Source: a virus
Length of the DNA stretch: 64,000 nt
Reading direction: 5' to 3' (one strand)
Virus record (IMG/VR): IMGVR_UViG_3300040770_000334
Span: 46,017-110,016 of that record
How positions within the stretch are numbered: position 1 is the stretch's first letter; the number at the start of each line of letters is the position of its first letter. Of the stretch, positions 62,734-63,412 are shown in pieces. Below the pieces are notes generated by a model. That model was not told where the DNA came from, made no database searches, and saw only the letters and a program-made list of their open reading frames with translations. Made by a program: the position numbers and the translations under genes.

Positions 62734-63412
62734 ATGAAAAAAATTAATCTGGAAATCCGTGATGGTAACGGTGGGGGTGATGCAAAATTATTAGTAATGG
62801 AGATGCAAGGCATTTACATGAAAACAGCGAAAAATAACGATATTGAGTGCTCAATAATTGATGTTAGAGAGGGCTTTGTTCATTTATGTCTTTAGCGGTG
62901 CTAATGTAAGAGATGTGTTTCAAAATGAAGAAGGTGTCCATTCATGGCATCGTGTCCCACCAACAGAAAAGAAAGGCCGAGTACATACCAGCTCAATAAC
63001 CGTTGTTATTTTAGATGAAAAACATTATGAGGATGTAAACCTTTCAAGTAATGAAATAAAGTTAGAAACAACCAGAGGTACGGGGAACGGTGGCCAGCAT
63101 AAGAACAGTACTGATTCGTGCGTTGTGGTCACACACATCGCCACAGGAATTAAAGTTGTTCGGGATGGTAGAAATCAACATAAAAATAAAGAAGAAGCCT
63201 TAAAAGAGCTTAAAAGACGTGTGAACGATTTATACAGAACTGGACATGTCGGTGATATAGTTGAAGAACGAAGGAATCAAATCGGTAATAGCGATAGAAG
63301 CGATAAACGAAGGACTTATAAGGTTAAAGACAATCTGGTGATAGACCATGTAACCAATAAATCAACCAGTCTTAAAAATATACTTAGAGGTAAGATAGAA
63401 TTACTATCATAA
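62734..63412 (+). CDS. prfA: RF1-like peptide chain release factor lacking domain 1, split by a predicted +1 frameshift at CTT-TAG-C (62890-62896); 225 aa fused
   Basis: Frame 1 LEIRDGNGGGDA..HLCL then TAG; +1 frame SGANV..RVPPTEKKGRVHTS (PxT), GTGNGGQHKNSTDS (GGQ), RNQHKNK, DKRRTY. Confidence 0.85.

Follow-up and report, generated by a model that had tools for sequence, protein, structure and literature searches.

For forty years textbooks have presented prfB, the gene for release factor 2 (RF2), as the example of a gene that gauges its own product by frameshifting, and release factor 1 (RF1) has been thought to be without such control. The prfB signal, SD-N3-CUU-UGA-C, sets an internal Shine–Dalgarno (SD) motif ~3 nt before a slippery CUU that is followed by a UGA stop and a C; SD-less prfB sites function in Flavobacteriia (~7%; PMC10798248). 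In a survey of >12,000 bacterial genomes published in 2025, none of the prfB motifs contained TAG and prfA was without programmed frameshifts (PMC12421855), and a 2016 review knew of no in-frame UAG in RF1 genes, citing a giant-virus case only (PMC5009743). CUU-UAG-C supports +1 shifting on Escherichia coli ribosomes and occurs in the Mimivirus release factor gene R726, where readthrough of a UGA-C precedes the CUU-UAG-C shift; the Megavirus gene mg280 has CUU-UAA-C (Jeudy et al. 2012, PMC3521657). Phages recoded to read TGA as Trp (Jade), two of which encode an RF1, are described as having their release factor module in the standard code (bioRxiv 10.1101/2021.08.26.457843). In a full-text literature search, no paper was found to describe phage RF1-type genes as frameshifted or read through.

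The gene compared here with these systems lies near the end of a window of 64,000 nucleotides, the whole stretch of viral DNA that was analysed. The window belongs to an IMG/VR record of 119,658 bp that is estimated to be 34% complete, a length that at this completeness indicates a jumbo phage. The gene comprises the following elements.

62734–62892, + strand: first open reading frame, 0 frame, 53 codons; N-terminal part of RF1 domain 2 with the tip of helix α5 (GGxD), at RF1 profile positions 104–149
62890–62896, + strand: shift heptamer CTT TAG C; neither the window's clade nor other late-site genes (both described below) show variation in it
62894–63412, + strand: +1 frame, 172 codons plus TAA; remainder of domain 2 (PPT), domain 3 (GGQ) and domain 4, from frame, profile and motif reads

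Read from ATG 62734, the 0 frame runs through 53 sense codons to CTT 62890–62892, followed by TAG 62893–62895 and C 62896, and the +1 frame runs from AGC 62894 to TAA 63410–63412. PPT is encoded at 62957–62965 (residues 75–77 of the joined product) and GGQ at 63089–63097 (residues 119–121). This is the layout of the original prediction, which had described a 53-codon frame, CTT-TAG-C and a 172-aa remainder with PxT and GGQ; its observation that the SD was missing is also confirmed, as the 18 bases 5′ of CTT hold no SD-like purine run. Besides the junction, an in-frame CTTT occurs a second time in the gene.

The two parts match the Pfam families PCRF and RF-1. Among NCBIfam models RF1 is the best family, with the N-terminal part at profile positions 104–149 and the C-terminal part at 164–333 of 347. 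Joined by a single step over TAGC (read as S), the 225-aa product aligns with the RF1 profile in one stretch, 104–333 of 347, with 189 bits, the separate parts scoring 160 and 24 bits; the collinearity with RF1 put forward in the original prediction is thereby borne out. Since the alignment starts at profile position 104, the product consists of domains 2–4 and is without domain 1; at 189 bits it lies below the RF1 equivalog cut-off of 400 bits, and it falls short of the four-domain architecture of ~360 aa. The same product scores 104 bits with RF2 and 73.6 bits with PrfH, below the prfH cut-off of 166.65, and the sequences of structures in the PDB rank in the same order (RF1 121 bits, RF2 73, PrfH 44). 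AlphaFold, supplied with 39 family sequences, gave a model with a mean pLDDT of 90.6, the N- and C-terminal parts sharing one sheet and the junction lying within a confident β-strand. Compared by Foldseek, the model superposes on ribosome-bound RF1 with a TMq of 0.92 and an r.m.s.d. of 1.8 Å, the TMq with PrfH being 0.68. In sequence and in modelled fold, the joined product is thus of RF1 type, as predicted, and closer to RF1 than to RF2, PrfH or ArfB. PPT is invariant in the family and GGQ in two alignments (A1 and A3), and from these motifs the factor is predicted to release at UAA and UAG and not at UGA. A His takes the position of the Gln that reads the third stop base in RF1 and in most relatives, which makes the exact stop specificity of this factor uncertain.

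Shared with prfB are the slippery CUU, a stop that occupies the A site and is followed by C, and the location in a class-I release factor gene; the stop is also predicted to be one readable by the class of the encoded factor, so that negative feedback is expected. The phage gene pairs an RF1-type factor (PPT) with UAG, whereas prfB pairs RF2 (SPF) with UGA; its site is in domain 2 (codon 54 of 225) instead of domain 1 (codon 26), and it has no counterpart of the SD ~3 nt before CUU, although GC-rich relatives do carry an internal SD. Like Mimivirus R726 and Megavirus mg280, it is a viral class-I release factor gene whose full product would need a +1 shift, at CUU-UAG-C in R726 as here and at CUU-UAA-C in mg280, and the pairing of UGA with CUU-UAG-C in R726 is matched by two sister lineages of the window's gene (L111 and L184). 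However, R726 is of eRF1/aRF1 type, belongs to a virus of amoebae and has its UGA upstream, whereas the window's gene encodes a bacterial RF1-type factor without domain 1, belongs to a phage and lacks an upstream UGA; independent origins have to be assumed for the two designs. The original prediction had known of no prfA frameshift, which agrees with the bacterial survey (PMC12421855), but CUU-UAG-C in a viral release factor gene had been published (PMC3521657). The Jade phages likewise encode RF1 beside tRNAs that include suppressor tRNAs; they are TGA-recoded, with an opal suppressor and no mention of a frameshift, as opposed to the standard code, amber suppressor and frameshift found here. 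PrfH (RF-H, paired with RtcB2) is similar in size and also without domain 1; the window's product is nearer to RF1 in sequence and fold and keeps the canonical PxT-type loop.

A window taken from a metagenome assembly might owe such a stop to an error, and CTTAGC with one inserted T would give the observed sequence with its immediate stop; equally, the gene might be a pseudogene free of selection. Logan's independent assembly of one public run, an ice metagenome that is probably the source sample, is identical to the window over 62600–63500 at a word depth of 21 with zero variants, and so agrees on TTT rather than TT at 62891–62893. The public runs containing the stretch are DNA runs of one ice metagenome only, and the GenBank phage set holds no near-identical record, the sole DNA-level match being the tRNA-Met upstream of the gene. 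A scan of viral contigs returned relatives at 46–75% identity, among which the window and five others form a clade of six distinct sequences from different samples (98% support). All six keep TGY-CTT-TAG-C at the same junction at pairwise nucleotide identities of 66–92% and dS from 0.2 to >2, despite saturation of synonymous sites, and the heptamer recurs in further lineages. Conservation of the junction in relatives so diverged excludes a single-T insertion error. Within the clade, dN/dS is 0.10–0.28 for the 0-frame part and 0.03–0.27 for the +1 part; these low values on either side of the junction imply that both halves are translated and selected, in two different frames. Gated genes occur in finished isolate genomes too. 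Artefact or decay is refuted by these observations and retains the slightest of probabilities.

The original prediction had held that the +1 frame has no good start of its own. This needs correcting: TTG 62858 and ATG 62861, 12 and 11 codons upstream of the junction, do lie in that frame, and the C-terminal 172–183 residues could be translated from them, the 53-aa peptide being separate or irrelevant. Such starts are not conserved in relatives, however: 7 of 15 late CTT-TAG genes have none there, and in two of the relatives (L139 and L217) the +1 frame is open for just 3 codons 5′ of the junction, leaving the CTT-stop site as the place of the shift. The N-terminal part is, moreover, under purifying selection, shares one sheet with the C-terminal part in the model and holds the α5 tip needed for stop reading. 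We regard a split gene as scarcely credible. The tip of helix α5 (GGxD) is the element that reads U1 of the stop codon.

The surroundings of the site were compared across a wider family, for which the C-terminal parts were aligned, viral and metagenome contigs were scanned and the genes were rebuilt by script. The census yielded 136 unique complete genes with a median length of 225 aa, nearly all with PPT and GGQ, and 131 of them carry a stop-codon gate, distributed as follows.

+1 shift, early site (~codon 38), TGA: 41 genes
+1 shift, early site, TAG: 14 genes
+1 shift, early site, TAA: 1 gene
+1 shift, late site (~codon 54, the window's type), TAG: 13 genes
early in-frame TGA with a late +1 shift at TAG: 2 genes
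+1 shift, late site, TGA: 4 genes
two in-frame TGAs: 29 genes
one in-frame TGA: 22 genes
in-frame TGA with in-frame TAG: 4 genes
one in-frame TAG: 1 gene
no gate, uninterrupted: 5 genes

At the 75 frameshift junctions, CTT precedes the stop in 74 and C follows it in 61; at late sites C follows in 19 of 19. In the genome of the window's phage, CTT makes up only 16% of Leu codons and TAG-C terminates 1 of 74 long open reading frames, and the constancy of CTT in the family despite this rarity places the site above chance. The GC-rich early sites have the full prfB cassette, GGAGG-N3–6-CTT-stop-C, with an SD-like 4-mer in 51 of 56 junctions; at the AT-rich late sites, the window's included, no internal SD was found. 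Gated relatives are present in finished genomes of cultured bacteria, namely Minicystis rosea, Nannocystis, Thiobacillus denitrificans and Variovorax, and on a Cupriavidus plasmid. The nearest match in genome assemblies, at 63% identity, is on a contig binned with a Bacteroidetes MAG. Two contigs of 150–170 kb, from MAGs labelled Methanobacterium and Bacteroidetes (L256, PLXT01000115.1; L255, JAJONO010000002.1), carry relatives at 63–64% identity with a double in-frame TGA and are most likely jumbo-phage contigs swept into the bins.

The presence of an SD at GC-rich sites and its absence at AT-rich ones fits the translation style of the hosts. SD-like motifs precede 1–3% of long open reading frames in the window's genome and two relatives (G000, G004 and G006), against 7–8% in random windows, and their leaders are A-rich. 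Few SD motifs and A-rich leaders are typical of Bacteroidota. As the gene starts of the phage and its relatives are themselves without SD, and SD-less prfB works in Flavobacteriia, the missing SD is no obstacle to shifting here. Nor was a stimulatory RNA structure found 3′ of the site (consensus fold of 0 pairs; single-sequence z-score of 0.18). With neither a stimulatory SD nor an RNA structure found, frameshift efficiency may be low.

Taken together, comparison of the sequences establishes a two-frame gene, conservation of its heptamer and purifying selection on both halves, and indicates that a short phage RF1-type factor gene has a real, conserved site of probable programmed +1 frameshifting. 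The conserved site and the selection on both halves support the earlier proposal that a prfB-style shift at CTT-TAG-C is needed for the full product. We consider it likely that the gene yields a 225-aa RF1-type factor by this shift and that the capacity for RF1-type termination is thereby held under negative feedback. On the model of prfB and Mimivirus R726, the ribosome would pause when CUU in the P site is occupied by peptidyl-tRNA-Leu and UAG-C has entered the A site; the tRNA-Leu would re-pair from CUU to UUU and decoding would resume at AGC, giving HLCL-SGANV at the junction. Full-length factor would be made only via the +1 frameshift, with which host RF1, the phage factor itself and a phage amber suppressor tRNA would compete for the A-site UAG, the 0-frame outcomes being a 53-residue peptide on termination and a 56-residue one on readthrough. 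Slow decoding of UAG would give more full-length factor and fast decoding less. Since UAG is a stop that factors of this class read, RF1-type activity would feed back negatively on this gene, and such feedback is plausible. An amber suppressor that reads the gate UAG in frame would meet TAA two codons on and should thus lower the output of the factor, a dead-end readthrough that complicates a simple RF1 feedback loop.

Around the gene lie the following elements.

61078–61434, + strand: phage tmRNA (Rfam RF00023, 64.5 bits, E 3.5e-24)
62548–62621, + strand: tRNA-Met (CAT), directly upstream of the gene and syntenic with a tRNA-Met upstream of the release factor gene in relatives
62689–62710, + strand: terminator-like hairpin with a T run, an 8-pair stem with 4 GC pairs, after the tRNA-Met and 24 nt before the start codon
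63415–63439, + strand: terminator-like hairpin with an 11-pair stem, immediately 3′ of the gene
G000:C1:112715-112786 (= L028:2816-2887), 2.7 kb past the window end: amber suppressor tRNA

Located 3.3 kb 3′ of the release factor gene, the amber suppressor tRNA has the anticodon CUA in a normal 7-base loop (Rfam, 60.4 bits). Similar tRNAs lie 1–3 kb from the release factor gene in three relatives (G004, G009 and G010), farther away in two (G005 and G008), and within 1.5 kb of it in 7 of 29 double-TGA relatives. Such a tRNA suggests another route across the junction, in which UAG is decoded by the suppressor, for example with UAGC taken as a quadruplet (+1), and tRNA-Leu does not slip. The product length would be the same, the suppressor is syntenic with the release factor gene in relatives, and G004 and G008 have predicted tRNAs whose anticodons comprise 4 bases. 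Quadruplet decoding, however, has no need of the invariant CTT, a rule that extends to TGA gates, at which a tRNA with anticodon CUA would play no part; the anticodon loop of the suppressor is normal, and a relative with an in-frame TAG gate (G006) has no detected suppressor. This route is very unlikely, and slippage of tRNA-Leu remains the preferred reading of the junction.

Odd anticodon loops are found in tRNA-like genes at G000:C1:113587-113656 (2-base), at 281534–281619 of G004 (AGGA) and at 18692–18768 of G008 (CCTA, which would pair with UAGG); these may be frameshift-suppressor-like tRNAs or prediction artefacts. Just 5′ of the tRNA-Met, at 62470–62545 on the + strand, is a tRNA-like anticodon arm with a CTCATAA loop, called neither by ARAGORN nor by Rfam. 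It may be a decayed tRNA-Met copy, to judge by relatives that carry two tRNA-Met genes there. ARAGORN did not call the tmRNA in the window and called it in two relatives (G005 and G010). Directly upstream of the tmRNA, at 58070–60632 on the + strand, genes for a DnaJ (J domain, CXXCXGXG and C-terminal domains), a phage metallopeptidase and ClpP stand in a row and form with the tmRNA, tRNA and release factor block a neighbourhood of proteostasis and translation rescue. Directly downstream of the release factor gene is a GIY-YIG endonuclease gene (63596–64000, + strand; PF01541, E 5e-08), probably a homing endonuclease. Two same-frame open reading frames split by TAG (53397–54221) were considered as a further target of the suppressor and rejected: the second has its own ATG, no homologue was found in relatives and the two are ordinary adjacent genes.

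The stops within these genes raise the question of the genetic code. A crude count of open reading frame stops in the window's genome gives TAA 89, TAG 10 and TGA 8, and all three stops terminate open reading frames in six relatives (G004, G005, G006, G008, G009 and G010). Code 4, considered as a reading of the relatives' in-frame TGAs, was rejected as the density of open reading frames in these six is equal under codes 11, 4 and 15. Candidate open reading frames with internal TGAs, re-examined in G004 (368 kb, complete) and G006 (318 kb, 96% complete), are antisense shadows of long standard-code ones. The standard code thus applies throughout in the window's phage and in all six of these relatives, which makes the stops inside their release factor genes gene-specific signals.

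No opal suppressor tRNA was found in any of seven genomes. A Hirsh-type tRNA-Trp (A24) was considered as the reader of UGA and set aside as uninformative, the D-arm bases being variable; A24 is common in ordinary tRNA-Trp. Selenocysteine was likewise rejected for the relatives' TGA, which aligns with Cys in the window, as no tRNA-Sec was found. At this position unbroken relatives have C or L, and manual alignment suggests variation in others as well; a third-base change in TGA yields Cys in two cases out of three. Five relatives (L117, L118, L122, L187 and L189, including those of G006 and G007) have an in-frame TGA and, 8 codons on, an in-frame TAG-C at the position of the window's gate, a candidate UAG readthrough gate in an RF1-type gene. 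G006, a 318-kb standard-code phage with this in-frame TGA and TAG gate, has no detected suppressor tRNA.

How far the match between stop and factor extends is answered by the distribution of gates. The original prediction had stressed that the stop matches the factor's own specificity. This stands for the window's gene, where PPT is predicted to go with UAG, and fails as a family rule: UGA gates (45 frameshift and 51 in-frame genes) outnumber UAG gates (29 and 5) among the 136 genes, and the codon-recognition motifs (PPT, GGQ and α5) are identical in TAG-gated and TGA-gated relatives. RF1 sensing, likewise, would be a direct consequence of the gate in this gene and is not general in a family with gates of either stop, and the feedback logic may be broader, addressing general termination capacity, or different.

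The same data invite a reading in which the frameshift is real and the gate throttles synthesis generically or senses termination capacity as a whole, TAG being one interchangeable choice and the output of the factor tracking how busy the host release factors are. The gate type switches often, with 38 changes on the family tree, at least seven of them forced for early TAG; the GC-rich clade shows repeated switching between TGA and TAG at the same cassette, and in the AT-rich clade in-frame TGA gates are mixed with late CTT-TAG-C gates. The window's clade is itself nested among genes with double in-frame TGAs, both of whose TGA positions are Cys codons (TGC and TGT) in the window, and the two sister lineages that keep an early in-frame TGA beside a late CTT-TAG-C (L111 and L184) look like intermediates. 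Against this reading, UAA, which both factors read, is found at only 1 of 75 frameshift gates, arguing that factor-specific sensing matters; among late-site frameshift genes TAG strongly predominates (15 of 19); and in the window's gene a UAG read by factors of its class would entail self-feedback no matter how the gate arose. We consider a generic gate unlikely, though it deserves to be weighed, and retain RF1-specific feedback for the window's gene. Retention of a gate while its type changes argues for a function, and across the family the gates could act as sensors of free RF1 or RF2, which fits the near absence of UAA.

On balance we favour the view that the window's gene belongs to a large, overlooked family of short RF1-type factors that phages and mobile elements carry and in which a stop specific to one release factor nearly always serves as a gate. 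The gate would be crossed by a frameshift (CUU-UGA or CUU-UAG, with an SD in SD-using hosts and none in SD-less ones) or by in-frame readthrough of UGA or UAG under the standard code, and the gates would be live sensors of host RF1 or RF2 capacity during infection.

If this is true, the family would provide the first RF1-type counterpart of RF2 autoregulation, a version predicted from the window's gene and its relatives to be present in phages and mobile elements. It would also provide the first natural release factor gene controlled by readthrough, a form of control that had been put forward ahead of the prfB sequence and has never turned up in bacteria. Gene finders probably label such genes as truncated or broken. 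With UAG, UGA and UAA gates, frameshift and readthrough, and sites with and without SD, the family constitutes a natural comparison set for the evolution and efficiency of recoding signals, and the TGA-gated relatives in cultured bacteria, among them Minicystis rosea, Nannocystis and Thiobacillus denitrificans, give experimental access to it. The position of the release factor gene beside a tmRNA, tRNAs and an amber suppressor points to active management of termination by the phage.
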